DNA of 64,000 nucleotides from Naegleria gruberi. Its lineage: Eukaryota. Location of the stretch: NCBI GenBank assembly GCA_000004985.1, contig GG738918.1, one strand, 5' to 3'. The position numbers were made by a program, and so were the translations under genes. The notes under the pieces are model-generated. The model saw nothing but the letters and a program-made list of their open reading frames with translations, was not told the DNA's origin and did no database searches. Shown piece after piece: positions 10,712-58,529 of this stretch (position 1 is the stretch's first letter; each line of letters opens with the position of its first letter).

Positions 10712-11194
10712 GATATTTTTTTTAATGTTGTTGTTATTAGTATCCAGTATTTACTAGTTTTCTAGTTTGGTGTGGAATAAAACAAGAAAAGACATGGTTC
10801 AATTATTGTTATTTGTTTAAATTTGAAATATATGTAACGGTTTTCTAAAGTGCCAAGAAATCACCTCGCTTATTAACCGTTTAAAAAAAAATTAATAAAA
10901 ATCTCAACAAAATTAATTACTTCCAGTTCATCATGAGTATTATTATTATTTCCAACTAATTTTAAGTTTAATATTATTTTTCAATTTTCATCATGTAACC
11001 CCACAAGAAGGATAACAACAATTCATGACCACCACCTCCAATTCCGGATGTTACCAACAAACATAGCACGATTACTATTTTACCTCATTCCGAAGATATA
11101 AAGTGTTGCTTGGATATTTATCAACACATCAATCGCACACAAGTTTTTGAAGATACACGATGTCAACAGGACGCTAAACAAATATCATCAAAAA

Positions 11195-14100: not shown

Positions 14101-17100
14101 TGATTCAGAGGATATTTTCAAACATGAAATGAAATTACAAGGAGAAATTTCTAAAATCCTTGTCGATTTGGAAAGAGAAGATAGTTCCAAGTTGGCCAAT
14201 TTCTCGCTTTCCAGTTTGAATGTAAATCTTTATATGGGAAAGAATAGTTTATCGTGTGAAGGAGATATTGGTACTGCCTATCTTTCACAACCTAATTCTA
14301 CATCTACTTATCCATATATTCTTTCTCCAAAATATTTGGGCGATCGCTCACTTATTAGATTTGCATACAGTCAAACAGATGATGAGCCAGTAATGAATAT
14401 AGAAAATTCAACCCGTGTTGTAAGAGGTTTCACCGAAAAGAAATCACTAAAGCTTGCAATGGCTTCAATTCAATTCATATTCATCAGCCAATTTATTGAG
14501 GACATTCAGAGTTATTTCCAAGATGGTCCACTATGGGAAGCTTTGGAAAATGGTGGAAAAATGATTAGTGACTATTCAAAAGAATTGATTTCTCAACAGG
14601 ATAAGAAATTGGAAATTATTTCTATGGACATTAAGGTGGAAGATCCAGTTGTTATTGCTCCAATACAAGACAATACTTTCACAGTTCACTTGGGAAATAT
14701 CAGATTAACCAATAAGGGAGACTGGGTTGAGAATGGAATTCCATGTGATAGCTATTCAATGATTTTCAATAGGATGAATTTACAAACTAAAATTAATGGA
14801 ATTGAAAAGACAGTGACTTCTCCATTCAATGTTGCTCTTGGATTGAAAAGAGTTCTCAAGAAGGATCACTTTCCAAGCATGTATTTGGATATTGAAATTG
14901 TACCAAAGGTTTTATTCACTTTGGAACATGCTCAGTATTTACTCTTGTTTCAACTTATTGATTCTTTCAATAAGAAACCAAGCGAAAGTAACGAAAAGAA
15001 ACAAGCAGAAGATTTGGAAAAGAAGGATAGTCTAACACTAATTGCTTTTATTAGAATCAAGTCCTTTGAGTTGGATGTAAAATCAGTAGCTGAGAATACT
15101 GATCTGGCCAAGTTGGAAGTTGAAGATTTCCAAATGAGATATTTCAAAGAACAATCTGGAGACAATATGCAATTCCTTGTCAAATCAATAATTGGAACTG
15201 ATCTAAGAGCTGAAAAGAATGAATATTTCACACAATTTATCACCACTCATTCCAAAACTACCAAGTGCTTGTCAGGTTCAATGATTACAAGAGGAAAGAA
15301 GAATGAAATTTCCCTCCAGATCAATAATCCAATTGTTACAATTATTCCTCAAGTATTTAAGGAGCTGCAAGAGTTCTTCTCCACAATGAAACTTGCTACA
15401 GAACCTCAAGAGGAAAAGAAACCAGAAAAGGAAATTAAGGAAGATGATTTAATGATATCTGTCAAATGTAACGATATTCGTGTAGCTCTTCCTGCCAATA
15501 ATTTCAATCAATTAGCATTCGTAATGAGATGCAAACAATTCTCAATGGAAGATATTCACAATTTCAATATTCATGATTTGGATCTTTCATTCCAAAAGAA
15601 TAGAAACAAATATGATGAGTACACCAACTATATTCTTCATCCAATTAGTTTGAATGTGAGCTATACGGATACTTTAATTATTCAGACAACTAGGGCAATT
15701 AATATTCGTATTTCAACAAGTATTATTCACCAAATTAGACAAGTTATGGACATGTTTACTTCTGAACTTTCCAAAATCAAAAAGACAACTGAAACCAAAT
15801 TGCCACCTTATCAAATTAACAACTTGCCTAATAATAAGGTAGATCTTTCGTATTTCGCTAACTTTTTTGCAAGTTTCAACCAAGAAACCAGATCTGAAAC
15901 CTTTAAATTTGAAGCATATCTAGTGTCAGGAATTTCCATTCTACTTGTCACTGATCGAAATGAAATTGACTTGCCAGCTCTACAACTCGATATTGAACAA
16001 GCGATCATTTCTGATTTCATTAGAATATCCAACATTCAACTATTGTGCTTCAATTTAAACTATGGAGTTTGGGAATCACTTGTGGAACCATTCACAGTTT
16101 CTGGATCTAGAAAAGGAAGCAATTACATTCTTGATATTCCAAAATGTTTATTGAATTTCAATAAGAATACATTCGAAATATTCAAATCTATAATGGAAAG
16201 TAAGGAAAGAAGTGTCATTACGAGAACTTTCTATCCAACAATTGTCAGAAACATGCATCCAACACCAATTACTATTAATGATCAATTACTGGAAGATGGT
16301 CAGGAATATATTGTGCAGGGAGAAGTTTCTTCTATTAGTTTCATTATTAATAATCAAACTTTCGTATTCTCCTTAAAGAAGAAACCAGGAACACATATTC
16401 TATCCTCTGAATGTTTACTCACTGTGGAAATTGTTGATGGAACAAGTTATTTTACCATTCATTCTTTGTATTCCATTGAGAATCAAACAGATGTCACCTT
16501 TGAAGTGTTGTACAATTCGAAACGATGTGGAAAACTTTCACCTAATCAAGTGAAATATCTTCCAAATGCTCCATTTGACAAGACCAATTTGAAAATTAGA
16601 CCATCCTATAGTGACGAGTACATGAGTCCAACATTCGAAGATCAAAATTCATCTCAATTCATCTTTATGAATAAGACTTCCAGTTTCTATTGTGAGTACG
16701 TGGAAGATATTGGACGAAACATGAAAAATTTCACAATTTCTCCACCTCTCAAACTAGAAAATAGAACTCCTATTGAATTGGACATGGAAATTAATGGAAA
16801 GAAATTTTCCTTACAAAAAGAATCCTCACTCTATTACTACTATGCCAATAAGGATTTCTCTGTGAACATTCTGACGAATAATCCTTCATTTAGTGATCAA
16901 TCATTCAGTGCCACAACCAGCAAAACCATGCAAATTTGTACGAATGGTAAAACTATTCCTCAAAAGCAAGAACCTAAAAAATCAAAATCATTTGCTGAGA
17001 TTGTCATTCGTGCACCTTTTTGGATTTTCAATGATTTGGAATTACCTATCAATATTAATGGAATTAATATTCTACCATTCAATTATACTACTATGAACAT

Positions 17101-19360
17101 CAATAATTTGACCATTTGTAGAGATGATAAAAACAAATTTACACCTAATTTGGATAAAATTCCACATGATACCATGGATTTGTGGAAATTAGGAGATAAA
17201 AGAATGGTTTACTATTTGAGAGAAACTGATGAGAGTAAATACATGTACCTCAGAGAAAGATATTACATTAGAAACAATACCAAATTTGATTTAAACATTA
17301 CTTTCGAGAAGAATTCATTCTCAGTCGCTGCAGGAAAGACACAACCTTATTCACATTACAATGATTCACTTCCTAAAATGAAAATCACTTTGGGAGAAGA
17401 GGAAAATATTGTGGAAACTAAATGTCAACAGGAATTGTCACTCAAATTTGGAAAATTCCTAAATGCCAAGCTTTTACTTAAGGAACAGGAAGGTTCAATG
17501 TTTGTGGTGATTAATGAAATACTATTGCCTGAATTTTACGTGGTCAACTCTACAGATTTGGAAATTGTAATTGATAAGGAAGGATTAGCTCCAAAAAATA
17601 TCAAACCCTATCTCAACATGCCCCAATCTGTTATAATTGACACCATTTCAGAGATTATCACCCTTAATAAGATTACAATGAATAAGGAAACAATGAAAAA
17701 GGTTGGAGATGAAGAAATTTATTACACACTCATTCCATATCAACAAGTAATCATTCTCCACATTCACAAAAAGAAAAAGACTGAGGAGAAGGATTATGAA
17801 CTGGCAGTAGATGTTACTTTCTATTCTATTGGAATTTCGATTATTGGTGAAAGTCAGGAATTGGCTTTTATTCATTTTGATCAATTATTTACTAAATTTG
17901 GAATGCTCAATACTCAATTTTGCGTTTATACTAAATTGCGTGGACTCCAAGTTGACGATCACAATGAACAAGAGGTCAACCCAGTTCAATTTGTGAATAT
18001 CAATTCTTCAGAGCAGAGTTTCATTGAATTTACAATAGAAAAGAATGGAAACTATTTTGAAACTGTTTCAGTAACTATCAGAGAAATGTTATTTAGCTCT
18101 AACAATATTTTCATTCAAAAGATGAGTGACGTATTCGCAAGTGCCATGAAACAAATGAAAGCAGTCCAAGAAACAAAACTAAATCAATTCTTGCAATATT
18201 TTGAAGTAGAGGAAAGTGAGAAAATGTTCTTTGGAAAGTTTGAACTCAATCCATTGAAAGTCGATGCTTCTTTCAAGGTGAAACCTTCCAATGATTTGAA
18301 ATACGATTTGGTTTATATTCTTTCCTCTTATGGAACTAAATTTACACACATTGAAAATGCCATAATTAGAATTTACGATTTCAAACTTCCTCAATCCTCA
18401 TTCGTTACCATGCAAGATGTTATGGAAAGAGTTGGAAAACACTACAAACGTCAAATCAAGTACAATTTATTGTCAATTATTGGATCGTTGAATACTTTTG
18501 GAAGTCCTATTCAATTATTTGGTGATTTGGCTTCAGGAGTTACTTCTCTATTTTATGAACCTGCAAATGCCATCACTGAAGGCCCACATATGTTCTTATT
18601 GGGTGTTGGTAAGGGATCTGTTGGATTTATTTCAAATTCTGTCAAGGGAGTAACTGGTTTCACATCAACAATTACAGGAACAGTTGGAAATACGCTTTCA
18701 ATCTTTACACTTGACAGAGATTTCGTCGAGAAGAGAGACAGGATTATGGAAAGGAAACCTGCCAATATTTTCCAAGGTATTGGACAAGGTATGCAAGTTC
18801 TCTTCACAGGACTCATTGATGGAGGTGTTGGAATTATTGCTCAACCAATTAAGGGAGCTAGAAAAGAGGGAGCTTTGGGATTGGCTAAAGGAGTTGTTCT
18901 TGGAATTGTTGGAATTCCTACAAAGCCAGTAGTTGGTATGATTGATTTTAGTATCAAGCAAATGCAAGGTATTCGAAACTTTAATCAATCATCACTTCAC
19001 AAAATTAGAGAAAATCCAAGAATGTTATTTAACGGAGTGATTAAACCATACAAGGAAAATATGGAATTGTTTTTGAGATTAATCCACAAATCCCAACAAT
19101 CAATAGAGTTTAATATTTTAATTCCTTTAGGAAAGACCTTGGCAATCACCAACAGACATTTGCTCATTCCACAATCAACCAACTCTAATGCACTTCAGGT
19201 TGTTGAATTGAATCAAGTGGAAGCTATTGAACAAGTAGATGATGATAATGTCAAGATTAGAGTGGCAAATCAAACAAGTTATTGTGTTTATTTGAATGTG
19301 GAGGCAGCTACTGTTCGTGCCTTGGTTGATAAGATGTTACGTGAGTTGAGTACTAATTAA
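11195..19360 (+). CDS. VPS13: VPS13-family bridge-like lipid transfer protein (chorein N-domain to VPS13/ATG2-type C-terminus), single exon
   Basis: The N-terminus MFESVVAKVLTATLGDYIENLDKQSLSVGVWNGKFKLTDLIVKRSALDLLDLPF matches the chorein-N motif of VPS13. The C-terminal region DLASGVTSLFYEPANAITEGP...GVGKGSVGFISNSVKGVTGF matches the VPS13 C-terminal (ATG_C-like) segment. It is a ~2720 aa uninterrupted ORF. The ATG at 11195 is chosen over the track start at 11147. Confidence 0.85.
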   Translation: MFESVVAKVLTATLGDYIENLDKQSLSVGVWNGKFKLTDLIVKRSALDLLDLPFSVVNGTVGLIEADIPWKSISTSSIKVRLSDIMLVVQPRRCEKIDETSERKRQRMVKQRKLTQYELRRKSENEVSNAASQATTTNQTEETNEKNEKNEKKQEGFVSRLTETIINNLQIEINNIHVRYEDDSDERFKVVMGATLESLSMSSCDVNWQESFLATTAKTFFKKLTLRNLSVYMNNNETELFSLMKNDLDNRKFIEHMRNIIVEKKNYRRFVLSPVNGELLLCMQKDEALDLERPRISAELRLESVNATLDERQYRNIQSTLDYITQFMEKPFDRPMFNSQNECQQYLSQSTDEKVTQFKNYMLMFKRSKKVAWLQPLTKDEAEKLLELEDFIHVDDIMKLREAAYLEIQIEEQKYKQKKKESSYWSKWFGSIDKTIEVTEEDRVEFSKLFGLEEDKGPSFILPPHFVNFALKVKINTIGVKLRNASTRTAAPDSVAVFELTQLLVDFKLRVEGFNVEVSLGGVSGVDNFSTRNEQSISEYYNFVKTNSVGNFVEFKMDSNPMNGVEQMDCKVGNLNVVLNLSLIQKMLSIFILPKYLQRSQFTAPSLPDTLKITKKILNAELDSISVIIPDTLSGKEYFQAHLGHSKLTKINEKIDISLTPIKLLHIGEAEDFTIIQPTDFSISMVQTIDQNLIDVKSTPLMVDVNPQVVTQLVRLGDTVSHFTNNPFGSSKESILIVNNVQMKLPKQEELSSAHIQLHDDGRLLVFKEESSLAPSHNIYFNTVQFHTETNSFKVVDFEFVLSNAKTFEEWKKNLESLLNKSISKAPLPPAIETIVNFSLDSIVLRALNDSSSSEVVAMAQANGLHTNVLARPNDNQVKVTLREITLHDGNQRKIFFSDHSTNIIEISIILCSNKESEFASQHSSKMFLNIKLSDMNLIFNTGIITKLFLFSKKINFEKESPIVMITEDDSEDIFKHEMKLQGEISKILVDLEREDSSKLANFSLSSLNVNLYMGKNSLSCEGDIGTAYLSQPNSTSTYPYILSPKYLGDRSLIRFAYSQTDDEPVMNIENSTRVVRGFTEKKSLKLAMASIQFIFISQFIEDIQSYFQDGPLWEALENGGKMISDYSKELISQQDKKLEIISMDIKVEDPVVIAPIQDNTFTVHLGNIRLTNKGDWVENGIPCDSYSMIFNRMNLQTKINGIEKTVTSPFNVALGLKRVLKKDHFPSMYLDIEIVPKVLFTLEHAQYLLLFQLIDSFNKKPSESNEKKQAEDLEKKDSLTLIAFIRIKSFELDVKSVAENTDLAKLEVEDFQMRYFKEQSGDNMQFLVKSIIGTDLRAEKNEYFTQFITTHSKTTKCLSGSMITRGKKNEISLQINNPIVTIIPQVFKELQEFFSTMKLATEPQEEKKPEKEIKEDDLMISVKCNDIRVALPANNFNQLAFVMRCKQFSMEDIHNFNIHDLDLSFQKNRNKYDEYTNYILHPISLNVSYTDTLIIQTTRAINIRISTSIIHQIRQVMDMFTSELSKIKKTTETKLPPYQINNLPNNKVDLSYFANFFASFNQETRSETFKFEAYLVSGISILLVTDRNEIDLPALQLDIEQAIISDFIRISNIQLLCFNLNYGVWESLVEPFTVSGSRKGSNYILDIPKCLLNFNKNTFEIFKSIMESKERSVITRTFYPTIVRNMHPTPITINDQLLEDGQEYIVQGEVSSISFIINNQTFVFSLKKKPGTHILSSECLLTVEIVDGTSYFTIHSLYSIENQTDVTFEVLYNSKRCGKLSPNQVKYLPNAPFDKTNLKIRPSYSDEYMSPTFEDQNSSQFIFMNKTSSFYCEYVEDIGRNMKNFTISPPLKLENRTPIELDMEINGKKFSLQKESSLYYYYANKDFSVNILTNNPSFSDQSFSATTSKTMQICTNGKTIPQKQEPKKSKSFAEIVIRAPFWIFNDLELPININGINILPFNYTTMNINNLTICRDDKNKFTPNLDKIPHDTMDLWKLGDKRMVYYLRETDESKYMYLRERYYIRNNTKFDLNITFEKNSFSVAAGKTQPYSHYNDSLPKMKITLGEEENIVETKCQQELSLKFGKFLNAKLLLKEQEGSMFVVINEILLPEFYVVNSTDLEIVIDKEGLAPKNIKPYLNMPQSVIIDTISEIITLNKITMNKETMKKVGDEEIYYTLIPYQQVIILHIHKKKKTEEKDYELAVDVTFYSIGISIIGESQELAFIHFDQLFTKFGMLNTQFCVYTKLRGLQVDDHNEQEVNPVQFVNINSSEQSFIEFTIEKNGNYFETVSVTIREMLFSSNNIFIQKMSDVFASAMKQMKAVQETKLNQFLQYFEVEESEKMFFGKFELNPLKVDASFKVKPSNDLKYDLVYILSSYGTKFTHIENAIIRIYDFKLPQSSFVTMQDVMERVGKHYKRQIKYNLLSIIGSLNTFGSPIQLFGDLASGVTSLFYEPANAITEGPHMFLLGVGKGSVGFISNSVKGVTGFTSTITGTVGNTLSIFTLDRDFVEKRDRIMERKPANIFQGIGQGMQVLFTGLIDGGVGIIAQPIKGARKEGALGLAKGVVLGIVGIPTKPVVGMIDFSIKQMQGIRNFNQSSLHKIRENPRMLFNGVIKPYKENMELFLRLIHKSQQSIEFNILIPLGKTLAITNRHLLIPQSTNSNALQVVELNQVEAIEQVDDDNVKIRVANQTSYCVYLNVEAATVRALVDKMLRELSTN

Positions 19361-43630: not shown

Positions 43631-45247
43631 TCAACATGTCTTTTCTTGGTAAAATGGCAAAGTCCAAAAACTGGTAGACTTTGTGTGGGATTTTTGAATT
43701 TCTTCATCATTTCTAATGGATAAATCTATTAGTTTGAATGCTCTTGAATCATGACTCAAGGCCACCAAAGCAATCTCTTTGTCTCTTCTCCAGCTTGGAT
43801 CGACATACATGAAAGGACAGCCATTATTGAGAGCTTTGATAATAATTTCACGATCCATTTTCCAAGAATTTTGGACAAACTTGAGAGCTATGCCATTTTG
43901 TCTGACAGCTGTCAATACAACTTCTCTTTGGTCCTTGAATTTAGAGTAAATATATTGTAAAGACGTTCCATCAGTTTGTACAGCATCCATCACAATGTCC
44001 AAGGTCTGAATCAAACTGGATTGAATTGAATTTGGGTTCTGCCCTATAGCCATTTTAACAATCTCAATATTTTCCCTAATTGATGCTGAGAAATAGTGTA
44101 ATAGAAGGCCATTTCTTTGGACAACCTGTCGAGCAATATCAACATCATCGTTCAATGGATAATCAATGTTTCTCATTACATTGGGGTTAATTTCTATCAA
44201 TTGGAGAATGAAATCCTTGTCTGTTCTCAAACTCGAATCAGCATATACAATATTGGATGGAGATTGTTTCACAGCTTCAATGAAAACTGTTTTGTCCTTA
44301 AGAAAGTTTCGAGCATATTGCAAATTGGTTGGATCTATTTTCAGTGCTTCAAGTACCATTTCCTGACTGATGATATTTTGTGGAATGCTATTTAATTTGA
44401 AAAAGCCTTCCTTGACAACCATAAGAGCTAGATCTGGATTTGCTTGCATTTCTGAAGATAATTTTTTGTAATCCAAGGGCCTTTTCTTAATCCAATACTT
44501 TAAAAACTCAATATTACTAATCGCATAAAGAATTGAAGAATTATTCCTCACAGCAGCACAAAGAATTTCAAAATCATTCATGAATTTTCCATCTGCACAT
44601 GTCAGAGCCGTTGCATTATGTCTTACAACTTTTAAAACCACGTCTCTATCAGATTTGATCGAATCATCAAATGCCATAAGTGATCGTAAGACCTTTCCTA
44701 AAATACAGGCAATCTCCTTATCTTTCCTCAATCCATCTGAAAGACATGATGAAATGGCCGAAAGAATATAATCACGAGTACAATATTTAGTGGCCACTTG
44801 CTTAATCCACTCCTTATCTGAGAATAAGTTGTGCTTTTTAAAATGATTTTCAATATATCTCGTATGCAATTCAAAGTGATCATTGCAATATCTAAACACA
44901 TGAAGAGCAACTTGCTTCTCGAATTGAATTTCTGGAAGGAAACGAATAATCTTCCAATCCATCAGTGCCAAAGAGATGAGAAATTGTCGATCCCTTTTCA
45001 AATCAATCAATTGCTCTGAAAATACCAATTCTCGTAAGCATTCGGGATTTGTTTGTACCATCATACGAATTTCTACCTTCCTCCGATAGGAAATATCAGA
45101 GATTTTGCAAAAAAGCCTCTCGGATAGATAGTCAGCATCGAGAATACAACAACATCTCCCATTACCATTTGAAAAAGTATGGAATTTTTTCTTTAAATTT
45201 TGAAAGATCTCAAATTTTAATATTGTAAAATTATTATTTTCAATCAT
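43631..45247 (-). CDS. DUF4116-like repeat protein (second family member in window)
   Basis: 538 aa with repeated LRTDKDFILQLIEINPNVMRNI / DREVVLTAVRQNGIALKFV / DKEIALVALSHDSRAFKLI motifs. Confidence 0.55.
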   Translation of the reverse strand: MIENNNFTILKFEIFQNLKKKFHTFSNGNGRCCCILDADYLSERLFCKISDISYRRKVEIRMMVQTNPECLRELVFSEQLIDLKRDRQFLISLALMDWKIIRFLPEIQFEKQVALHVFRYCNDHFELHTRYIENHFKKHNLFSDKEWIKQVATKYCTRDYILSAISSCLSDGLRKDKEIACILGKVLRSLMAFDDSIKSDRDVVLKVVRHNATALTCADGKFMNDFEILCAAVRNNSSILYAISNIEFLKYWIKKRPLDYKKLSSEMQANPDLALMVVKEGFFKLNSIPQNIISQEMVLEALKIDPTNLQYARNFLKDKTVFIEAVKQSPSNIVYADSSLRTDKDFILQLIEINPNVMRNIDYPLNDDVDIARQVVQRNGLLLHYFSASIRENIEIVKMAIGQNPNSIQSSLIQTLDIVMDAVQTDGTSLQYIYSKFKDQREVVLTAVRQNGIALKFVQNSWKMDREIIIKALNNGCPFMYVDPSWRRDKEIALVALSHDSRAFKLIDLSIRNDEEIQKSHTKSTSFWTLPFYQEKTC

Positions 45248-48197: not shown

Positions 48198-50369
48198 CTA
48201 CTTTCTCTGTTGACAATATCTGAACCAAGTGTCATTTATGACCATATCTCGCACAAAGGTTTCCAATTTATCCAAGGCATCGTATCTTCCCAAACCATTC
48301 TCAATTTCCACTTTTGATTGTTGCAAAACTTGTCCTGAAATATTTAAATGATTATCTCCACTAGGATCAATGAATTGTTTGAGAACTTGCTGTTGTTTCT
48401 CGACACGATCTTGTGCATTGGGAATTCTTCTGTACTGCTCAACAGTTTCCAAGAAGAGAAAGTTTTCCACTGATCTTTCCTTTTCGCACTGCTTTTTAAA
48501 TTCCTGTCTCAGTTGAGTATTGTTGAACATTTTATCAAATTCCATGATGAGCTTGATAGATTCGAGAAGTTGTTGATTTTGTTGTTTCTTTTCTTTCAAT
48601 TTCTTTTCCTCACTCAAATCTTTACATACGAGAAGATAGGTATCTCGTAAAGATTCACATTCTGACTTTTCACTGTTTGGAAATTGAATTAATTTGGCAG
48701 AAATCTTGACTGGTATCTTTTCACTTGTTGGTTTGGTGAGATGTGTTTCCCATGAGTCTCTTGAGGATTGTACCAATTGATTAATCTTGGATAATAGCTC
48801 AGATTCTTGTGAAAATTCCTTCAAATATCTAGAAATGGAACCAAGATCTTTTTGGGAATATCTGGTTTTGTTAAAAAAGGCAGTGTTGGCCATTGTTACA
48901 TTTGCTGTTTTTCTATCCACTGCCAATACCATATCTGAAATACTGTTCAGTAGAATTCTTGTTTTTTGCTCTTCCAAAGATGCCTTTTCCAGCAATTGTT
49001 CTAACAAGTTTCCTCTCTTGGCTATTTGTTCACTCGAAGCAGCCACCACTCTCAACATGGTATTAATTCTCTGAGTGAGTGTTGAAATTTCTGTAATCCC
49101 CTTCACTGGAATTGTAGAATCTGCCAAATTTTCAGTATTTTTCATAATTTTCCTCAAATGGTAACCTAAATTCACAAGTGGAGTCACAACAATTACTTCA
49201 TTCAAGACGAAAATAATCAGTGATGACAAAATAACAACCAAACAAGTAAATCCATACGACCAACCAAAACTCTGAAGTCCCAATTCTCTTACAGAACGAG
49301 AGAAATCAGTTCTCAATACGAAAGAAGGTTGTCCATAAATATCCTGATAGGTTTGATAAGTAATAATTCGTTCTCCTGTGGAGGATGAATCATTTCCAAA
49401 GCAAATTCTTTGATTCTTTGCACTTTCGGCTACATTTCCCATTCGAATAAGTGTTGGGTCTGTATTTTTCCATTCACTAATGATGCTGCTTGAATTAGGA
49501 TAAATGTATGGCTTGGATTTGATTTGGTTCCACACAGCAGTGAATTCTGAATCCAATTCCTTACCAGATTGCAAATTATACATTGTAATACACACTTGAG
49601 CTCTATTCGAAACCTGACTAACATAAACTGAGCGAATATACCGAGCCCACATCATAATTCCAGGTGTATCCGTAAATCCACAACCACTACACTGCACAGG
49701 AGCTGCCATTACCAAAAACAAAGTTCCATCTTTCAATGTCCAATATCCAATATTCATAGTCGAAAGTATCTGAATGTTTTCCATTAGAAAGGAGGGTAAT
49801 TGATACATTTCTGTTGGCATTGGAACAGCCATTCTACTTTCAAAATCATATCCCACTTTTCCTGCAACGGTTCCATTCAGAAAATAGTATCCAATAAAGT
49901 TGGCACCTGTTAATTCTTCAACGTGGTCTATATTTCCATACGAAACGTTTAGTCTCTTGTTCATTTGGTCTACAGAATAAGTTTTCATGAGGTAATATGA
50001 AGAATCCTATCAATTTTCAGAAAGTAGACATTCCATAGAATAATTACATTTCATCACCATGCGAAATATTCCATTAAATATTTTTAAATATTAACAATTT
50101 ACAATATTAAATATTTACAAAATATTATATAACATCAAAATACTTACCCAATTAGAATAAGTCAACAGAATATCCATCTGATTCTTGAAATCATCCATAA
50201 TAGCCCTCGTCACTCTTGTAGTAGTTTCCGATATATCACTTCTCTCAGCATATTCGAAACTCGAAAGCAAAACTCCCAACAAAACAGCCATAAACAATGT
50301 CATTACCACCAGAAACAAAACAGCCAACACGATAACATTCTTAACTCTCAAACTGCAAACATCTTTCAT
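48198..50369 (-). CDS. Membrane sensor protein: TM1, about 250 aa extracytoplasmic domain, TM2, linker, PAS-like segment, coiled coil, C-terminal RGS domain; 2 exons (50369..50148; 50006..48198)
   Basis: Exon 1 has MKDVCSLRVKNVIVLAVLFLVVMTLFMAVLLGVLL (TM) and ends ...YSNW|gtaagt. The 141-bp intron ends gatag|. The second TM is CLVVILSSLIIFVLNEVIVVTPL. The RGS box is SVENFLFLETVEQYRRIPNAQDRVEKQQQVLKQFIDPSGDNHLNISGQV. Confidence 0.65.
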
Positions 50370-50759
50370 TTTTTTCTTCTTATTTCAAACAACTGTCAAA
50401 CTGTCAACAACTTAATACTCTAAAAAAGAGCTATTTTGACAGAGAGAAGATGTGATTGAGGGAACTTTTGTATCAATGCCTTCTGTATATAAAAATTGGT
50501 ATCCAGTAAGGTCAGCACTTAGCTAATTGAGAAACTCGTGTTCATTTTCAATTTCTTATTCGAAAGTGACATTTGTTAACTTCGATGGATTGTGTTAGAC
50601 TTGCCGCATTACTTTGAATACTTTCCTACTAGGTGCTGGAAAGGTCTTTTGTTGTTGTAACCAGTTCGATAATAAAGCAGCCATTCCTGTCATCAACTGC
50701 CTAAAATGTCAGATGCCATGAAATTGAGAATCCTGCTTGTTGATATATAGCAAGAAAAA
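50370..50759. promoter_or_regulatory. Shared divergent (bidirectional) promoter region between the two sensor-RGS paralogs
   Basis: A 390-bp intergenic space lies between the head-to-head start codons at 50369 (-) and 50760 (+). Confidence 0.4.
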
Positions 50760-53023
50760 ATGTCAACAGATGTAGAGTTGCAAACAGCAGATAGTGAAAA
50801 GAATCTGGTGGGTGATTCGTTTGAAAATAAAGACTATTCGAAACAACAACATGTTCACGAGGGAAATGAAATTGTGATGACCAATGTTTTGGAGGAAACT
50901 ACTTCGAGTGGTGGAATGGTTGACCTCACCGATCAACAATTACCCAAATTCGAAGAGCTGGAATCGACATCTATCAGCGATCGAGGTTCTTTCGTCAACA
51001 TTCGAACAATTTCCTATTCGATTCAAATCGTTACCAATTTCATCATGTTACTCATCGTGGCAGGAATTCTCTTCTCGATATTCTTTACTGGTTTCCAACA
51101 ATTGGAAGAGCACGTAACGACTGAGGCCAATTTACGAATCCAACGAGCAATTTATGATGATTTTAAAAATGCTCTTGCCTTGTTGGCTTCGTTTGGAAAT
51201 TGGGTAAGTTTCGTTGATGAAATATTCGAAAGTTAATTGGAGAATAGTTGGATTTTTATAATGTGATGGATGCTGCGTATAGTGATGGATATAAAACCTT
51301 CTTGGATTGGGTGGATATTAATTATCCGTATGGAATGAGTAAGTAGTTTCGAATATGTTGGGTTGACTAGATTATTTTAATAGTGAGAGATGCAATTAAA
51401 TCGAATTTTGCATTAATTTACTTTAAGAATGGAACACTGGCTGCTGCAAAAGGCTTCAATCTAGAAACAGGAGATATTCTAGAGACTCCTGCTGAGCTAG
51501 CCAACTTGGGTTCTGACAATCCACTGAGAAAGGATATGGACAAAAGCACAACCAGAGTAAATGGATACCTCCTTACTTCCAAATATGGTGCTCTCCTCGT
51601 TTCTGCCTATCCAATCCACTTCAGCCCTCTAAAAAACAATCCACCAAATGGAATTCTCATTTTTGCAAGAATTCAAACTGAACAAGTGACCTCTTCCATT
51701 GCATCCAGAGCTCAAATGTGCATCACCCAATTCAGTGTCAATGATGCAGCACTCGATTCAGTTAGAAAACGTATGAAACTCGATAAACCAACTATCATTA
51801 ATGGATACGACATGAATTGGGAGAATAATCAAGCTTTTGCCTATGAAGAAATTGATTTGAGATATTTGAGTGGAAGAGTTTGTGATTCTGTGAGTGTTGG
51901 ATTGGAAGCAAAGGGTAGAGTAGCAACATTTCAATTGTATGCAGATATTTATGGAAATCCTGCTGTGGTTTTGAGAGCTGACACTGAAAGATTTATTCTA
52001 AATTTGGGAATTAATGCTTTTGTGATTGCTGTTTGTTTGTTGCTTGCGATTATGATTATTCTTGGCATTGCTGTCATTTTATTTACTGAAGTTGGTATTA
52101 TTAGAGGAATTTTACAATTGACTGATCGTGTCACTAAGATTTATGAAACAAGTGACATTTCTAATAGAGTTTCTATGAAAGGAAATGATGAGATTGCAAA
52201 AATTGGTTCCAATGTAGATCAAATCTTGACAATTATCGAAAATTCTCAAGTTCAATTGAAGCAGAAACAAGACGAAATGAGACAACTCTTGCAAAGAATT
52301 TCATTAGAAGAATACAAGACAAAATCAATCATGAATAGCTTACCAAATTCTGTAATCATGGTCGATAAGACAAATGGTGAAGTGGTTGGTTCAAATGAAC
52401 CATTCTATGAATGCACAGGATACTCTGAAAGTATGATCAAAGTTGGAAACTTGTCAGTTGCCAAATTATTCAACAAGCCAAGCACAGATCAATTAATGGA
52501 TGAATTTAAAGAATTGACCTTGAATTCAGGATCGAAAGCAATGAGTATGAGCACAGTTAATGGAATGATTATTCCAGTAATTATCTCAGTACAAGATGCC
52601 AAATTCTATAAAAGGAATAAGGTAGTATCTGCTTTTGTAATTTCCATTCAAGATAAGAGAAAAGATTTGGAATTGGTTAAGGAGGTTGAATTGGATGAGG
52701 AGAAAGTTAGAGAAATTCAACTCTTAATTGAATTTGAGAGAATGATTAAGAATCCAGATAGTCGAGACGAATTTATACGAAAGTGCAATGAAAATGGAAA
52801 GAGATTAACAATGCTATTTGTAGAAGTTAAGAATTTGATGGCAGGACTCAATTCTACCAATTTCCAATATGTATGGGAAAGTTATTGTCAAGTTGAAGAA
52901 TCAATTTCTAATTTCCCAGAGTTTAAATCAGCAAAATTGGAAAAGGATCTTTCTAATCAATTAAATTTGATGGAAATGAATTTGAAGAGTGCCATTATTC
53001 GAAACTATTATAATAATAAATAG
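50760..53023 (+). CDS. Paralogous membrane sensor / PAS / RGS protein; 2 exons (50760..51203; 51371..53023)
   Basis: Exon 1 holds the TM IMLLIVAGILFSIFFTGF and ends ...SFGNW|gtaagt at the same position as its paralog. The acceptor gactag at 51370 is the only in-frame option without a stop. Second TM FVIAVCLLLAIMIILGIAVILF. RGS-like end (IQLLIEFERMIKNPDSRDEFIRKC...). Confidence 0.6.
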
Positions 53024-53273
53024 TCTTAATTCTTAGAAGAGATGAATAGTCTTGCATAAATGCATGAAAATATTCCGAATATTCTTTCTTATTTAGTGTG
53101 TGAAGATAGAGATGAATAAAAAGATACTCCAATTAATAGAAAAATCAAATGTGTATTAAGTCCGCCAATTAATATAATATATTTACAAACAGGAAGTATT
53201 AGTAAATATGAACACACACGCCTTGTATGTTCAGCAACACCTTGTGAGAGTGTTAAAAAGTGTGTGAAAAAGA

Positions 53274-54071
53274 TTACTTGTTAATTCCGAAAATTCTCCT
53301 CTTGTGGAAACTTGGCAATTTAGCCAAGACAACAACAACGGTAGCTACCACATTGACAAAGAGCAAGAGCATATTATCTCCGACAAAGTAGGAAGTGAGC
53401 AATAACAACACACAAGGCACAACAAACATGAATTTACGTGTTGGTGTGAATTGTTTTTGATCATCCAATTGTTCCCACAATGTTAATCTACTGTGGTCAT
53501 TGTAGCCCATCGAGTAATCATATGGAGAACCCTTCTTCCAATGGAAAAGAACAAAAGTAATCAAAGAGTGAAGAAGATTCAAAATAGTCCAAGTGTATAC
53601 TTTTCTTGTAGTATCTAATTTATATATTATTAATAATAGTAGATTGTTAATATATGTAAGAGGAAATGATGAAGGAATATAAAGATGATGAGTTAAATAG
53701 ATTTAAAAAGTAATAGTTGATTAATATGATTAGATATCAAATAATGATGAATAAAACAAACCTTGCAAGTCTCCGAAGGCTTTTCCATATAATACAAGAG
53801 CAAAGTGAATTGCCCAATAAGCCAAAGCTATAACCAATCCATAAACAACCCAAGCAACAGTTGCTCCAAAAGGTTGAACATTAAAGTTTGTACTCACAAT
53901 CTCTCCTTCATTTGTAGCAGATATAGTCAAAAAGGATTGTGATTCGGAACGAGTCATTTGTGATTTAAAAAGTGAAGGAGAATGAGTAGGTGAAGTTCCA
54001 GCAGGGACATCAAGATTCGATGATGACGAATTGTTGGAAGGACTTGTATTAACAGTTAAATTCTTTCTCAT
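53274..54071 (-). CDS. ORMDL: ORM1/ORMDL family sphingolipid-synthesis regulator with Ser-rich N-terminal extension; 2 exons (54071..53762; 53599..53274), intron 53600..53761
   Basis: The joined protein ...YTWTILNLLHSLITFVLFHWKKGSPYD...RLTLWEQLDDQKQFTPTRKFMFVVPCVLLLLTSYF...LAKLPSFHKRRIFGINK closely matches the ORMDL consensus (WTLTNIIHN..FLHTVKGTPF..LTHWEQMD..QFTASRKFL..PKLPQLHGVRIFGINKY). The donor gtttgt is weak. Confidence 0.75.
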
Positions 54072-54535
54072 CTTGTTGGTGTGAAAATGTGTAGTATTAG
54101 TGAATTGATGAAGAAAAAATCGTTTCGATGTTTTTTTTGTATTTTTTTTTGTTTGTTGATGGAAAATTTTATTAATAGAGGTTGTTATTGTAAAATGTTA
54201 GTATGTTTAAGGAGTTGATGATTGGTGTGAGGAGGGGAGATTTTCACAGAGTGTGGAGAAGACAATGGGGAGAGGACATGGATGGTTCTAGGTGGATTGT
54301 CGTGATTTCCGAAATTTTCATTGTAGAATGGACAGAAAAAAGTGCACGATTGTAATTGTGATATTTCTCCGTTTCCTTAATAAAGATTTGAGCAGGCACT
54401 TGCTTCGGCTCTGTTGCGATAAAGCTGCAGCACAATTTCTGGTTGTTGCTCTATTCTTGTTGATTAATCCAGTGAACGAATAGGAAGATTTTGTATTCAC
54501 ACTGAAGTGCACATTAGTTTAATTGCTTTCGAGCA

Positions 54536-54608
54536 GCCCCGCTAGCTCAGTCGGTAGAGCGTTGGACTTTTAATCCAACGGTCGTGGGTTCGAGCCCCAC
54601 GTGGGGCG
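54536..54608 (+). tRNA. tRNA-Lys (anticodon UUU), 73 nt, no intron
   Basis: Acceptor stem GCCCCGC/GTGGGGC (one G-U pair). D-arm GCTCAGTCGGTAGAGC. Anticodon stem-loop TTGGA-CTTTTAA-TCCAA. T-arm GTGGGTTCGAGCCCCAC. Discriminator G. Confidence 0.9.
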
Positions 54609-54610
54609 GT

Positions 54611-54620
54611 TGCTTTTATC
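54611..54620 (+). terminator. RNA polymerase III terminator (T-run) immediately downstream of tRNA-Lys
   Basis: TTTT at 54614-54617. A longer T9 run at 54655-54664 may act as a backup. Confidence 0.6.
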
Positions 54621-54947
54621 TTTTGCTCAGATTATTTGCTGTTACGCTGTTTTTGCTTTTTTTTTAAGAACCTCTGAGATATTTAAGTTGGGGTAGTGTA
54701 AACCGGTCTTGAAATGGAAGCTCATTATTGTAAACATGGTGAGATAATGAAAGCCATTATAATTGGTCATACTCGTTGATAAATTAATATCTTCAAATGT
54801 GCAAACTACTAAAAGGAGAAATTTCAAAAATCTTTCAACGTATTAACAGGACATCTATACCCTCCAATAGACCCATTTCCCCACCCTATTATCCTGTTAT
54901 TCAGATGAGTTTTCAAGATCTTTAATTTGAGACTTGCATTTTGGTGA

Positions 54948-54960
54948 AGGTATAAAAAGA
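54948..54960 (+). promoter_or_regulatory. TATA box (ggtataaaaagaa) about 45 bp upstream of the PaiB-like gene ATG
   Basis: tataaaaag at 54951-54959. The first ATG downstream in a long ORF is 55003. Confidence 0.4.
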
Positions 54961-55002
54961 ATAGAATTGGAGTATCTAGTGGAAAGTATTATTGAAAGAA
55001 AA

Positions 55003-55845
55003 ATGATTGAATTCATTCTTGCTGTTGGTGTTGGTGCCTTGTTGTGTTTGGCTTTTGTTTATTTAAGACAACACAACAAGAATAACAAGTTGAAAGCAGA
55101 CGAAAGTCCATGTCCTTTCCACAATATTCAAAAATACTCGTTATTCACTCCTCATCATTTTAAAGTTGAAAGAGATGAAGATTCCATTCAACTAATGAAA
55201 GACAACTCATTTGGCATTCTTCTCACTTGGAAAGGATCTGAATTACACACCTCTCATGTTCCATTCTTGATGGACGAAACGAATCCAAATTCTCTCAAGC
55301 TGCACTTCCATTTAGCCAAGCAAAATCCTCATTGCAAGGCATTGGAAGAATTTGCCAAATCTCCAACTGCCAACGGATGGAATTGTAAGATTATCTTTGT
55401 TGGACCTCATTTCTACATTTCACCAAAATGGTTTTTGGGTGGATTGGAAGGTCAAAAGAAGAAAGTTCCAACATGGAATTTCACAACAGTTCATGCTCAT
55501 TGTGATTCCTGCCAAGTTTACAATTCACATGATGAAAAGAACAAGATTGTCAGTGATTTGACAGTTTTTAATGAGGATTGGTTGATGGAACATTTCAGAA
55601 ATCCAGTAAAGGAATTGGATGATTACAAGTACGATTTCTCAAAGACTGATGAGAAGTATACTGAGCAAATGTTGAAGGCAATTGTTGGATTCACTCTCAA
55701 TGTTAAGGAATTGAAGGGAAAGTTCAAACTCTCTCAAAATTTGTCAAAGGAAGAAAGAATTTCAATTATCGATGGATTGAATAGACAAGGTTATGATTTA
55801 GCCATTGATGCAGGAGTCCATATGAACAGAACTATCAATGAATAA
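55003..55845 (+). CDS. PaiB-family FMN-binding split-barrel protein with N-terminal hydrophobic anchor
   Basis: ILLTWKGSELHTSHVPFLMDE, LHFHLAKQNPHCKAL, IIFVGPHFYISPKWF, KVPTWNFTTVHAHCDS and AIVGFTLNVKELKGKFKLSQNLSKEER match the PaiB (COG2808) pattern (...ISHLPF.LD..LHGHLARANP...F.GPHAYISPSWY..VPTWNY..VH.HG....GFEI.V..L.GKFKLSQNR). The N-terminus MIEFILAVGVGALLCLAFVYL is hydrophobic. Confidence 0.7.
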   Translation: MIEFILAVGVGALLCLAFVYLRQHNKNNKLKADESPCPFHNIQKYSLFTPHHFKVERDEDSIQLMKDNSFGILLTWKGSELHTSHVPFLMDETNPNSLKLHFHLAKQNPHCKALEEFAKSPTANGWNCKIIFVGPHFYISPKWFLGGLEGQKKKVPTWNFTTVHAHCDSCQVYNSHDEKNKIVSDLTVFNEDWLMEHFRNPVKELDDYKYDFSKTDEKYTEQMLKAIVGFTLNVKELKGKFKLSQNLSKEERISIIDGLNRQGYDLAIDAGVHMNRTINE

Positions 55846-55885
55846 GAAATGAGCTGAAGAAACAAAATAGGATAAATAAATTAAT

Positions 55886-58529
55886 TTACTTGGAAGGTGC
55901 AAACTTTTCACACCTGGCAATCATCTCCTCCACAGCTCTATCATTTTCATTCTTTATTTGGAATTGACGATATCTATCAATGGCTGATTCATATTCACCT
56001 TGAATATAATAAGATGAAGCTTGATTGTAAACATTCCATCTTTCCTTTCGTTCTTTCTCTTGCAATTCATACATCCATTCATCCATCATATTATTTGCAA
56101 TGTTTTCTCCCAATTCATAGATTCTCATCTCTTCGTACTCATTATTTCCGTTAATATCGCTCAGTATTGGTGAAGTGTAGACTTCCTCATGAAGAAGTGA
56201 CTTTTCATCCACCAATCTGGTATTGAAAGAGCCCTTAATTGCCTTTTGGAGTCTTTCTGTAATAACTACCGAGAGACCAAGCCTCTTGGTTGTTTCCAAC
56301 ATGATTTCAAAGTTGGTTCTGGCACTTGAAATGATAGCAAAGTTTTTCATTTCATTTGTTCCAATATTACCACAACAAACTTCATTGTAAAGGATTGCGA
56401 ATCTAAAGTTCAAAAGACTCATAATTTCCTTAGTTTGATGGGAAGATCCTAATACGCTTGGCCATTTGCCTTGTTTGGTTGTATTCAACTTTTCTATAAG
56501 GAATAGACAACCCTGAGCTGCCTTTTCTTGGTGTTTATCTTGGTTGGAGCTGGCATTGTAAGAAATGGTAATGCAATCGTTTTCAAAGGCACCAACATGT
56601 CCTCCAGATGTTCTACACAAAGCATTCACGTGGTCAAAGACATCAGACAACATCCTTACAATAATATCCGATCCAATGGTTGTGTCTGACATTTTCAATA
56701 ATTCTGATAATCCCTCCAAGTGACAACACAAAATGGTAATCTTCTTCTTGACCAAGTGCAATGAGAACATATCAACATTTTGAGAGTATTTCTTTCTTCT
56801 AGAGGAGGTATTTTTCATGCTACTTGTGTTATGTGAATGGGAATGATAGGAGCTCGAATGATCACTCTTACTGAATGAAAAGTGGCTGCTCTGTTGTTTT
56901 TCTCCAAATCCTCTATTGCTCTTGTCAGGTCTTATTGTGGAAACAGACTTTTGCTTATCACCTGGCTCCAAAGCGTTCTCATTTCTGTGCTCTAATTGTG
57001 AAAGTAAGTGGGCTGGAATGAAAGCTCTGTAAAGTTTTATACGTCCAACCATTTGTGTGAATTGACCTTGCAAGTGTTTCACCTCGGTAAAGCTACTGCT
57101 TAAAATATTCAAATCATCCAAGTCCATGTGGGCAACACTTTCAAAGAGTTCAATTAAATTGTAGAATGGTTTGACAATTTTTATAGAGACAAGAACAGAG
57201 ACTATCAAACCAATACCCATAATGATAATTGCACCACCAACAGAGGCGATGAATGAAATGATAATCGATCTGATATAATTCCACTTTGGAACAGCAAATA
57301 TAACTGTGAAAAAATATTAGAAATTGAAGTCAATATCAAAAACTTACTCATCCAATCCAACTTGGATTCTGTACAAAGACGATACATTGACACGTAATCA
57401 TCATTAAAATCGAATAAAGCTCTAGAGTTACATTTTGGAATAACAGTCTTGAGATTGGTCATTCCTCTGGCCACCATTTCGGTGGTGATTGGGCTGAATC
57501 TAGGATTTGTTAATTGGAGGTATTCAACTCTTTTGATATTACTTCCTTCAATGTCAGCTAAACTCACTGCTGGGTCATCAACTGAAATTGTTTAAATAAT
57601 TAAGCAAACTATTATGATAACATACTGGCAACTAAAAAGGAAGTGTCTATTTCTACAATAAAACTCTTAGAACCGCTCACTTCCTTGGTTTTCTTAGATA
57701 AGAATTTGGACACTGTTTCAACAGACAAGTCAAAACCAAAATAGTGTTCAAATTGGTGTCCACCATTTACAGGACCACTAGGTTTCAAGCAATTAAGCAA
57801 TGAAATGAAAGTAAATTGAGGCATAGTGGCATCAATATAGCTCTTTGTATAAATCTGAGCACCTGGGGATGAATCACAAGCTTCTACCAAGTTTGACAAA
57901 TCAAAAAAGCCCAAAACTTCATCTGGAGTGGAAGATCTATTACAATAATCCAATTGATCAAAATTATGGCAAGTATACAGCTGTTGGTTCGCTGTTGTAA
58001 TGTTCAGTAATGTTGGTTGTCCTCCCCAATTTATAACACCAAAACATCTTCCCAAATTATCACCAATATAACTCGTAACAATCAACCCCTGATGGTATTT
58101 CCACTCTGTCTTGAACCCCTGAAAAGTGAGCAATTCTGCCTCATCATAATTATTAAAATCCAATGTTTTTACCAATTGATACGTTATACTATCGGATGCT
58201 ATGGATACTTCTCGAAATGTTTGTTCTGTAAATGTTATAATTTCCTTAAATTCGGATGTTCTTAGATTCTGACTCATCTCTACAATGGACGGAACAAAAC
58301 TACTCAATGAAATAGCCACCAGTAACAGAACTGTAATGGTTACTATCAGGGAAATAATAAGGATGAGCCAAAATTTGATGGAACCACAAAATCTAATCTT
58401 TTTAGAAATATCTCCTTCCGATTCTTGATAACTCTCTTCATCATCTTGATGCTGTTGGGCCTCTGGATGATTTGGAGTGTGTAATTCTGAATCCTGAGGA
58501 ACTACCTTACTAATTTTGAATGAGGACAT
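55886..58529 (-). CDS. Receptor-type class III nucleotidyl (adenylyl/guanylyl) cyclase: TM1, about 260 aa ectodomain, TM2, cyclase domain, C-terminal TPR-like; 3 exons (58529..57626; 57581..57348; 57303..55886), two 44-bp introns
   Basis: TM1 FWLILIISLIVTITVLLLVAISL. Junctions ...FLVA|IDDPAVSLADIEGS (donor gtatgt, acceptor aatttcag) and ...SKLDWM|IIFAVPKWNYIRSIIISFIASVGGAIIIMGIGLIVSVLV (donor gtaagt, acceptor ttcacag). Cyclase core CCHLEGLSEL...CRTSGGHVGAFENDCITISYNA...CCGNIGTNEMKNFAIISSARTNFEIMLETTKRLGLSVVITERL. TPR-like YIQGEYESAIDRYRQF. Confidence 0.7.

Follow-up and report, generated by a model that had tools for sequence, protein, structure and literature searches.

A locus of Naegleria gruberi raises the question of whether a regulator of heterotrimeric G proteins can be placed behind a sensor with only two transmembrane (TM) helices, and of how many of the neighbouring genes belong to such a system. 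In teaching, heterotrimeric G proteins belong to a seven-transmembrane (7TM) receptor system, but plants and some protists regulate this signalling at the GTPase-activating protein (GAP) step, by means of 7TM-RGS proteins. We analysed a window of 64,000 nucleotides from contig GG738918.1 (assembly GCA_000004985.1), which is AT-rich (GC about 33%) and has short introns with gtaagt donors, and focused on three genes: A (48198..50369, minus strand), B (50760..53023, plus strand) and C (55886..58529, minus strand). An earlier note, made from the letters of this stretch, had the coordinates and strands of all three correct. It had read A and B as divergent paralogs, each with a TM-bounded ectodomain, a PAS region and an RGS box, and C as a nucleotidyl cyclase of the same layout, the three making up a signalling island. 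Our analysis supports a narrower and somewhat different picture. The family to which A belongs is a real, conserved receptor-RGS variant, and its most original element is a conserved pair of genes, one with an active-looking RGS box and one with a pseudo-RGS remnant.

The sensor cassette and RGS box of gene A

Over its 676 aa, the protein predicted from the spliced exons of A matches NAEGRDRAFT_74859 of Naegleria gruberi with 100% identity. Pfam placed a CHASE4 domain (PF05228; 35.4 bits, Pfam cutoff 26.2) between its two TM helices, and because this match crosses the junction of exon 1 and exon 2, it validates the splice. Both A and B have two strong hydrophobic helices (residues 12-30 and 330-348 in A, 90-108 and 392-410 in B) around a segment of about 280-290 aa, in agreement with the TM-ectodomain-TM plan that had been proposed for them. 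The hydropathy analysis also revealed a positive-inside charge bias that is clear in A and weak in B; Lys and Arg are concentrated N-terminal to TM1 in both proteins, and C-terminal to TM2 in A only. These signals predict a topology with the N-terminus inside, the ectodomain outside and the C-terminus inside, most clearly for A. Seven TM helices were not found ahead of the RGS box of A, which is preceded by two hydrophobic helices only, and the claim that its sensor-RGS logic is distinct from that of 7TM-RGS proteins was borne out.

An AlphaFold2 (AF2) model of A, for which the input was a 14-sequence family alignment, reached a mean predicted local distance difference test (pLDDT) score of 79.5 with the elements in the expected order. 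A long helix (residues 7-71) runs from TM1 into the ectodomain, which comprises a distal alpha/beta module (111-218) and a smaller proximal beta module (260-310). The transducing region consists of a continuous TM2-HAMP helix (312-363), a further helix (380-397), a signalling helix (410-428) and a PAS fold (433-537), and the C-terminus of a linker helix (539-569) and a helical bundle (571-675). Foldseek matched the model to double-PDC periplasmic sensor domains (3lid, 2p7j) and to WalK-like layouts, and the fold of the sensor agrees with the solved CHASE4 domain 8wct. The order of the ectodomain is that of the published CHASE4 structure of PA2072, namely a scaffold helix, a PAS-like distal subdomain and a reduced proximal subdomain (PMC12625894). 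A PDB sequence search with the ectodomain of A gave no match. The ectodomain contains two invariant cysteines. The PAS alpha/beta fold is found in A and B alike; a LOV-type PAS in A was considered and rejected, as no NCRFL-type motif was seen on direct reading of the PAS sequence.

At the C-terminus of A, Pfam recognised an RGS domain (PF00615) at residues 564-673, scoring 40.2 bits (cutoff 23.9). PDB sequence matches of this region were RGS5, RGS9 and RGS6, and the nine-helix RGS fold is present. The roles of residues E87, N88, N128, D163 and R167 of RGS4 are established from its structure with Gi-alpha1, and A carries counterparts: its SVEN aligns with the SxEN motif in the RGS5, RGS9 and RGS6 alignments, its LNIS contains the Asn equivalent to N128, and its DTWFR gives the equivalents of D163 and R167. 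In a comparison of 75 family RGS domains, the contact positions (RGS4 numbering) are conserved at E87 in 69, at N88 in 64, at N128 in 70, at D163 in 58 (with Glu in another 11) and at R167 in 64. These analyses confirmed the description of A as a receptor whose extracytoplasmic sensor lies between two TM helices and whose C-terminus is an RGS box, and the RGS box looks competent as far as its residues can tell.

The head-to-head pair and the family of A

A and B are indeed paralogs, with 26% identity over 592 aa by BLASTP (E=5e-56). The first intron of each gene is in phase 0, follows an aligned Trp codon (..SNW in A, ..GNW in B) and begins with a gtaagt donor, much as the earlier note had described. 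An RGS box had been assigned to both paralogs, and this held for A but not for B. No RGS box was matched in B by Pfam (E<=1) or in the PDB (E<=10), all six G-alpha contact positions (6/6) are substituted, and the C-terminal region is about 25 residues shorter; we looked further downstream for another exon or reading frame that could supply the missing RGS box, and there was none. The CHASE4 domain (PF05228) of B scored 30.3 bits (cutoff 26.2). GenBank names B a 'histidine kinase'. Since HisKA and HATPase_c are missing from B (no Pfam match at E<=1), this name is wrong, and it probably derives from the bacterial-type CHASE4/HAMP/PAS input.

An orthologous pair occurs on L001, a contig of 62.8 kb from a metagenome that is eukaryotic and comes from a distant heterolobosean. 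P0002, the protein closest to A (42% identity), stands there head-to-head with an orthologue of B (44% identity to B), the called start codons lying about 60 nt apart (L001 9607..9669) compared with 390 nt in N. gruberi. The intron after NW is present in four of the four genes (A, B and both L001 orthologues), and the second intron of B (after INYPY.M) is also kept in its orthologue. Identity between A and its orthologue is 46% in the RGS box and 47% in the ectodomain. Between B and its orthologue it is 54% in the ectodomain, 45% in TM2-HAMP, 37% in the PAS domain and 23% in the C-terminal region, and from these domain-wise values we conclude that the sensor of B is constrained and its output domain relaxed. 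The L001 orthologue of B scores as RGS in precomputed Pfam matches, yet it is without the contact residues (TSKIEF, PIVISH). Because they all recur on L001, the inverted duplication, the exon structure and the active/degenerate asymmetry predate the split of the two organisms. The arrangement and introns on L001 thus bear out the divergent A/B pair as a conserved unit.

About 3 kb from its pair, L001 also carries a PAS-HisKA-HATPase_c gene (L001 14569..16552, plus strand) beside a Response_reg gene. The two, possibly one hybrid kinase divided by the gene caller, represent bacterial-type signalling on a eukaryotic contig.

Word-indexed homologue searches, with A or with the family profile, recovered almost only A and P0002. 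An exhaustive HMMER search over 1.84 billion representatives returned 1549 matches at E<=1e-3, of which 40 were at E<=1e-30. Among 166 retrieved proteins, 40 (at least 40 representative clusters) combine an A-type ectodomain with HAMP/PAS and RGS, and another 29 have HAMP/PAS and RGS behind a different N-terminus. Pfam identified CHASE4, HAMP and RGS in four tested members (P0013, P0024, P0019 and P0038), with PAS matched in P0013 and P0038 and reaching the cutoff only in P0038. Species known by name among the members are N. gruberi (at least four further loci), N. lovaniensis, Willaertia magna and Acrasis kona, and all other members lie on environmental contigs.

The suggestion that A represents an undescribed receptor class survives in part: A is not isolated, being one of a large heterolobosean family already in databases, but we found no description of this family in the literature. 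Its members have been in GenBank and UniProt since publication of the genome, under the automatic labels 'RGS domain-containing', 'HAMP domain-containing' and 'histidine kinase'. A full-text literature search yielded no paper that joins CHASE4 with RGS or reports CHASE4 in eukaryotes, and the relevant CHASE4 papers retrieved concerned bacteria or archaea only. An earlier cataloguing of the architecture is possible, because Anantharaman et al., in 2011, are said to have covered very diverse RGS fusions in Naegleria.

Related combinations of sensor and output exist as well. P0061 of Acrasis kona joins CHASE (PF03924) to PAS and RGS, and P0069, from a metagenome, joins CHASE to RGS, its PAS being seen only in the scan of retrieved proteins. 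CHASE-PAS-RGS is a sister architecture, with the PAS-RGS output in common and another Cache-superfamily ectodomain. On JGI/ENA metagenome contigs, P0088 (714 aa) and P0080 (1920 aa) combine CHASE4, HAMP and PAS with a canonical Guanylate_cyc domain. The proposed reuse of sensor and output modules is therefore found at the family level, in CHASE-PAS-RGS and CHASE4-HAMP-PAS-cyclase proteins, but does not extend to C, whose ectodomain is not the A/B module.

The nearest relatives that lack RGS can be aligned with A from TM1 through PAS. They are CHASE4-HAMP-PAS-HisKA-HATPase or GGDEF-EAL proteins, both bacterial architectures, and beside one of them, on a bacterial contig, lies a gene for a sigma54-type response regulator. 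The simplest reading would be that a sensor cassette of bacterial origin entered a heterolobosean ancestor and was joined there to the eukaryotic RGS box, after which the family expanded. Plant cytokinin receptors (CHASE-histidine kinase, AHK4/CRE1) use a bacterial-type two-TM Cache-superfamily sensor as a eukaryotic ligand receptor, with an output that is still a histidine kinase; in A, by comparison, the cassette is rewired to a heterotrimeric G-protein regulator and not to the ancestral kinase. The family of A may represent a third solution, in which a bacterial one-component-style input was grafted on RGS and expanded across a lineage that includes relatives of the pathogen Naegleria fowleri.

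The TM1-CHASE4-TM2-HAMP-PAS cassette of A is shared with CHASE4-HAMP-PAS histidine kinases (P0167) and with PA2072 of P. aeruginosa, a CHASE4-HAMP-PAS-GGDEF-EAL protein (PMC12625894). Unlike these bacterial CHASE4 enzymes, to which its identity is about 20-25%, A has a eukaryote-specific RGS output and is found in a eukaryotic host with spliceosomal introns. The 7TM-RGS proteins (Arabidopsis AtRGS1; 28 in N. fowleri, PMC9283941) resemble A as membrane receptors with a C-terminal cytoplasmic RGS box, a self-activating G-alpha and a regulated GAP step, and those of N. fowleri have the genus in common with it. A differs from them in its two TM helices around CHASE4, followed by HAMP and PAS, and would pass its signal by bacterial sensor mechanics, probably as a dimer. 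In N. fowleri, another 79 RGS proteins outside the 7TM class were counted without being itemised (PMC9283941).

Gene C, a predicted pseudo-cyclase

The splice sites of C were taken from the sequence, and the exact 851-aa model has no identical entry in the protein collection. C consists of TM1, an ectodomain of about 310 aa, TM2, HAMP-like helices, a Ser/His-rich linker, a cyclase-homology domain and TPR-like helices. A structure model spanning exon 3 only (TM2 to the C-terminus) had pLDDT values mostly of 83-94 in the cyclase-homology domain, which Foldseek matched to CyaB, Cya2 and CyaC (TMt 0.73-0.78, E about 1e-9 to 1e-11). In this fold and in the TM-ectodomain-TM-HAMP-cyclase-homology order, C resembles the class III receptor cyclases, including P0011 (dCache_1-Guanylate_cyc), with which it gives a distant full-length alignment.

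Unlike those enzymes, C fails Pfam, with no Guanylate_cyc (PF00211) match at E<=1, and its sole PDB sequence match is a weak one to CyaB (E=1.4e-3). Its residue substitutions can be read against class III cyclase enzymology. In an alignment with P0088, P0080 and P0011, whose cyclase domains are canonical, C has His for the first metal Asp, Ala for the substrate Lys and Met/Ile for the transition-state Arg, and the Lys of the KG motif is lost; the second metal Asp is retained, and the Asn only with a one-residue shift. These substitutions are common to a Naegleria-specific family, found in Naegleria and metagenomes only. On its sequences, this family looks like a constrained pseudo-cyclase or an altered active site and not like random decay, and the alignment predicts that C is a pseudo-cyclase, at least as a homodimer.

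The ectodomain of C also stands apart. Its profile had no match in Pfam or the PDB, and in hhalign it did not resemble the profile of the A/B ectodomain (probability 0.3%); hhalign did align 44 columns of it, locally and weakly, with the dCache_1 ectodomain of P0011 (E=2.8e-4, probability 41%). Of the interpretation of C as a nucleotidyl cyclase with the layout of A and B, the TM-ectodomain-TM plan and the cyclase fold therefore stood, while the Pfam result, the catalytic residues and the unrelated ectodomain went against it. For the proposed TPR output, Pfam gave weak matches only. Two annotations are corrected as a result: B is no histidine kinase, and C is no demonstrable cyclase.

Two further observations concern C and its relatives. 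Residues ~480-555 (~56760..57000, minus strand) form a Ser/His/Asn-rich low-complexity linker from the HAMP-like helices to the cyclase-homology domain, which is predicted to be disordered (pLDDT about 30) and varies in length among paralogues. In the C-like proteins P0004-P0010, the canonical catalytic motifs have given way to a conserved His in place of the first metal Asp, an FEND motif that looks invariant, and the motif ISSAxxNLExM.

Table 1. Coordinates of the genes, domains and intervening features within the 64,000-nucleotide window.
Feature	Position	Strand	Basis or remark
Gene A, NAEGRDRAFT_74859, 676 aa	exon 1 50148..50369; intron 50007..50147; exon 2 48198..50006 including stop	-	spliced model
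A TM1, residues ~12-36	50262..50336	-	Kyte-Doolittle peak 3.21; K/R enriched N-terminally; predicted cytoplasmic N-terminus
A CHASE4 core, residues 56-217, intron inside	49578..50204	-	whole ectodomain ~37-325
A TM2 (326-348) and HAMP (348-397)	49038..49253	-	hydropathy; weak Pfam HAMP; AF2 helices
A PAS (~423-537), signalling helix (410-428) ahead	48618..48962	-	
A RGS box (564-673), linker helix (539-569) ahead	48210..48539	-	
Divergent intergenic region, 390 bp between A and B start codons	50370..50759	.	sequence; presumed bidirectional promoter
Gene B, XP_002670173.1, 724 aa	exons 50760..51203, 51248..51338, 51384..53023	+	spliced model identical to NCBI protein
B TM1 (about 90-108)	51027..51089	+	hydropathy
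B CHASE4 core (131-292)	51150..51724	+	Pfam PF05228; hydropathy of flanking helices
B TM2 (about 392-410)	52010..52078	+	hydropathy
B PAS (492-602)	52322..52654	+	Pfam PAS_9 E=3.9e-4, PAS E=2.4e-3; aligns with A PAS
B degenerate, shortened RGS-like remnant (632-724)	52742..53020	+	contact residues lost; 23% identity to L001 orthologue
Gene C, 851 aa	exons 57626..58529, 57348..57581, 55886..57303	-	splice sites taken from sequence
C class III cyclase-homology domain, predicted catalytically degenerate	56102..56755	-	Foldseek; residue alignment
ORMDL gene	53274..54071	-	Pfam ORMDL E=4e-31 on open reading frame 53274..53582; intervening, outside system
tRNA-Lys(UUU)	54536..54608	+	ARAGORN; intervening, outside system

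Proposed action of the pair, competing explanations and the neighbourhood

We think it fairly probable that A is a receptor-type G-alpha GAP with CHASE4-HAMP-PAS input and that B is its non-catalytic partner. In such a receptor, TM1 would extend as a scaffold helix to CHASE4, TM2 would return to HAMP, the signalling helix and PAS, and the linker helix would lead to an R4-like RGS box. Judging from the bacterial CHASE4-HAMP-PAS enzymes, A probably works as a dimer. A ligand on CHASE4 would act through TM2, HAMP and the signalling helix on PAS, and the linker helix would then shift the access of the RGS box to membrane-bound G-alpha-GTP, or its activity on it. The CHASE4 domain of PA2072 is a proven extracellular ligand sensor, for extracellular ATP (eATP; PMC12625894).

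G-alpha subunits of N. fowleri undergo spontaneous nucleotide exchange, and 7TM-RGS proteins speed their GTPase (PMC9283941). Because G-alpha is self-activating there and 7TM-RGS proteins act as GAPs, the GAP step is taken to be the regulated step in Naegleria (PMC9283941); with self-exchanging G-alpha, GTP hydrolysis would be the controlled step and A the pathway's receptor. B would have arisen by inverted duplication of a common ancestral gene, keeping the sensor cassette and losing a working RGS box. Its constrained sensor, decayed output and conserved divergent arrangement are the reasons for seeing it as a modulator of A, most likely a non-catalytic partner. The divergent arrangement suggests co-expression of A and B, which may come about through a shared divergent promoter.

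If the cassette does gate the GAP, bacterial transmembrane signalling mechanics would be tied directly to eukaryotic G proteins. Such receptors would have soluble ectodomains that could be expressed and screened for ligands, and the locus would offer a natural active/pseudo-RGS pair for the study of receptor regulation.

The architecture, topology signals, folds, residue conservation, paralogy, gene pair and family distribution are shown by the analysis, and the surface location, dimerisation, ligand dependence and GAP activity of A and its partnership with B are inferred from them. Several points weigh against a ligand-gated GAP with B as its partner. In A, HAMP (PF00672) scored 16.7 bits, under the cutoff of 25 that the paralogues P0013 (36.3 bits) and P0019 (26.3 bits) pass; PAS is also below the Pfam cutoff in A, and AF2 confidence is low at the HAMP-PAS link (396-411). 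RGS boxes are normally monomeric, which fits poorly with gating by a dimeric coiled-coil signal. The ectodomain could face the lumen of an organelle or phagosome and not the outside, and the partnership of A and B is drawn only from their conserved adjacency and active/degenerate asymmetry.

A more tentative idea, to which we give clearly less weight, is that the receptor is an obligate heterodimer of A and B. Here the two CHASE4 ectodomains would read a cue jointly and gate the RGS box of A, the dead RGS of B having a regulatory or occluding role. A bacterial prey metabolite and extracellular ATP are candidate cues, and if the idea is true, a prokaryote-derived, non-7TM receptor class would sit atop G-protein signalling and be widespread in Heterolobosea.

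It is unlikely that the RGS box of A serves as a docking or effector module, like the RH domains of GRK2 and RGS-RhoGEF proteins. It would then recruit G-alpha-GTP, and the state of the G protein would modulate the receptor or scaffold partners.

We rate as similarly doubtful the proposal that A and B sense an internal lumen (phagosome, contractile vacuole or endoplasmic reticulum) and inform G proteins at the surface of the organelle about lumenal chemistry or bacteria that have been taken up. Plasma membrane and lumen call for the same topology, a surface-targeting signal is not readable from sequence, Naegleria is bacterivorous, and the known CHASE4 ligands are bacterial or host small molecules (eATP, Fe3+). 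Nothing specific stands against this proposal, which is a variant of the receptor-type GAP that we favour and differs from it in location alone.

Far less probable is that A, B and C form one functional unit in which related two-TM sensors coordinate G-protein and cyclic-nucleotide outputs. The three genes do lie within ~10 kb and have the TM-ectodomain-TM-HAMP layout in common, and CHASE4-HAMP-PAS with a canonical cyclase output exists elsewhere, in P0088 and P0080. However, the ectodomain of C is unlike that of A and B and belongs to no Pfam or PDB family, and its cyclase domain is without most catalytic residues. ORMDL and tRNA-Lys genes lie between B and C, as the earlier note had stated, and an FMN_bind_2 gene intervenes as well. 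The surrounding and intervening genes, which also include an aspartyl protease, SDR, mitochondrial carrier, MIF4G-like, DUF4116 and VPS13-like genes and others, are housekeeping in character, and a wider signalling cluster was considered and rejected on this ground. No homologue of C was found within 10 kb of the L001 pair. The N. gruberi genome reportedly has about 15,700 genes, of which roughly 100 are cyclase-like and another 100 or so are RGS genes, so that adjacency within a few genes would be expected by chance in a few percent of cases, a further point against the island. Given the housekeeping genes and the missing linkage of C on L001, the 'signalling island' is abandoned and only the A/B pair is a unit.

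Although the first exon is set apart by an intron and the C-terminus of B is degenerate, the idea that the fusion is a gene-prediction artefact (merged genes, a misattached TM exon) or that these are decaying pseudogenes is effectively refuted: most of CHASE4, together with TM2, HAMP, PAS and RGS, lies in one uninterrupted 596-codon reading frame, the CHASE4 match crosses the splice junction, bacterial homologues align unbroken from TM1 onward, the architecture is seen in at least three genera, the exon structure is kept at 42-44% protein identity, and the sensor domains of B are conserved at 37-54%.

Other genes of the window have features of their own. The FMN_bind_2 gene (54934..55845, plus strand; E=2.7e-41) is of bacterial type (PaiB-like), has a hydrophobic N-terminal segment and lies tail-to-tail with C. 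The window contains two DUF4116-repeat genes, at 7279..8979 (minus strand, E=6.5e-52) and 43631..45247 (minus strand, E=2.6e-70). A single open reading frame of 2737 codons at 11147..19360 (plus strand), with a VPS13-like N-terminal region (E=2.6e-83), forms a very large intron-free stretch.

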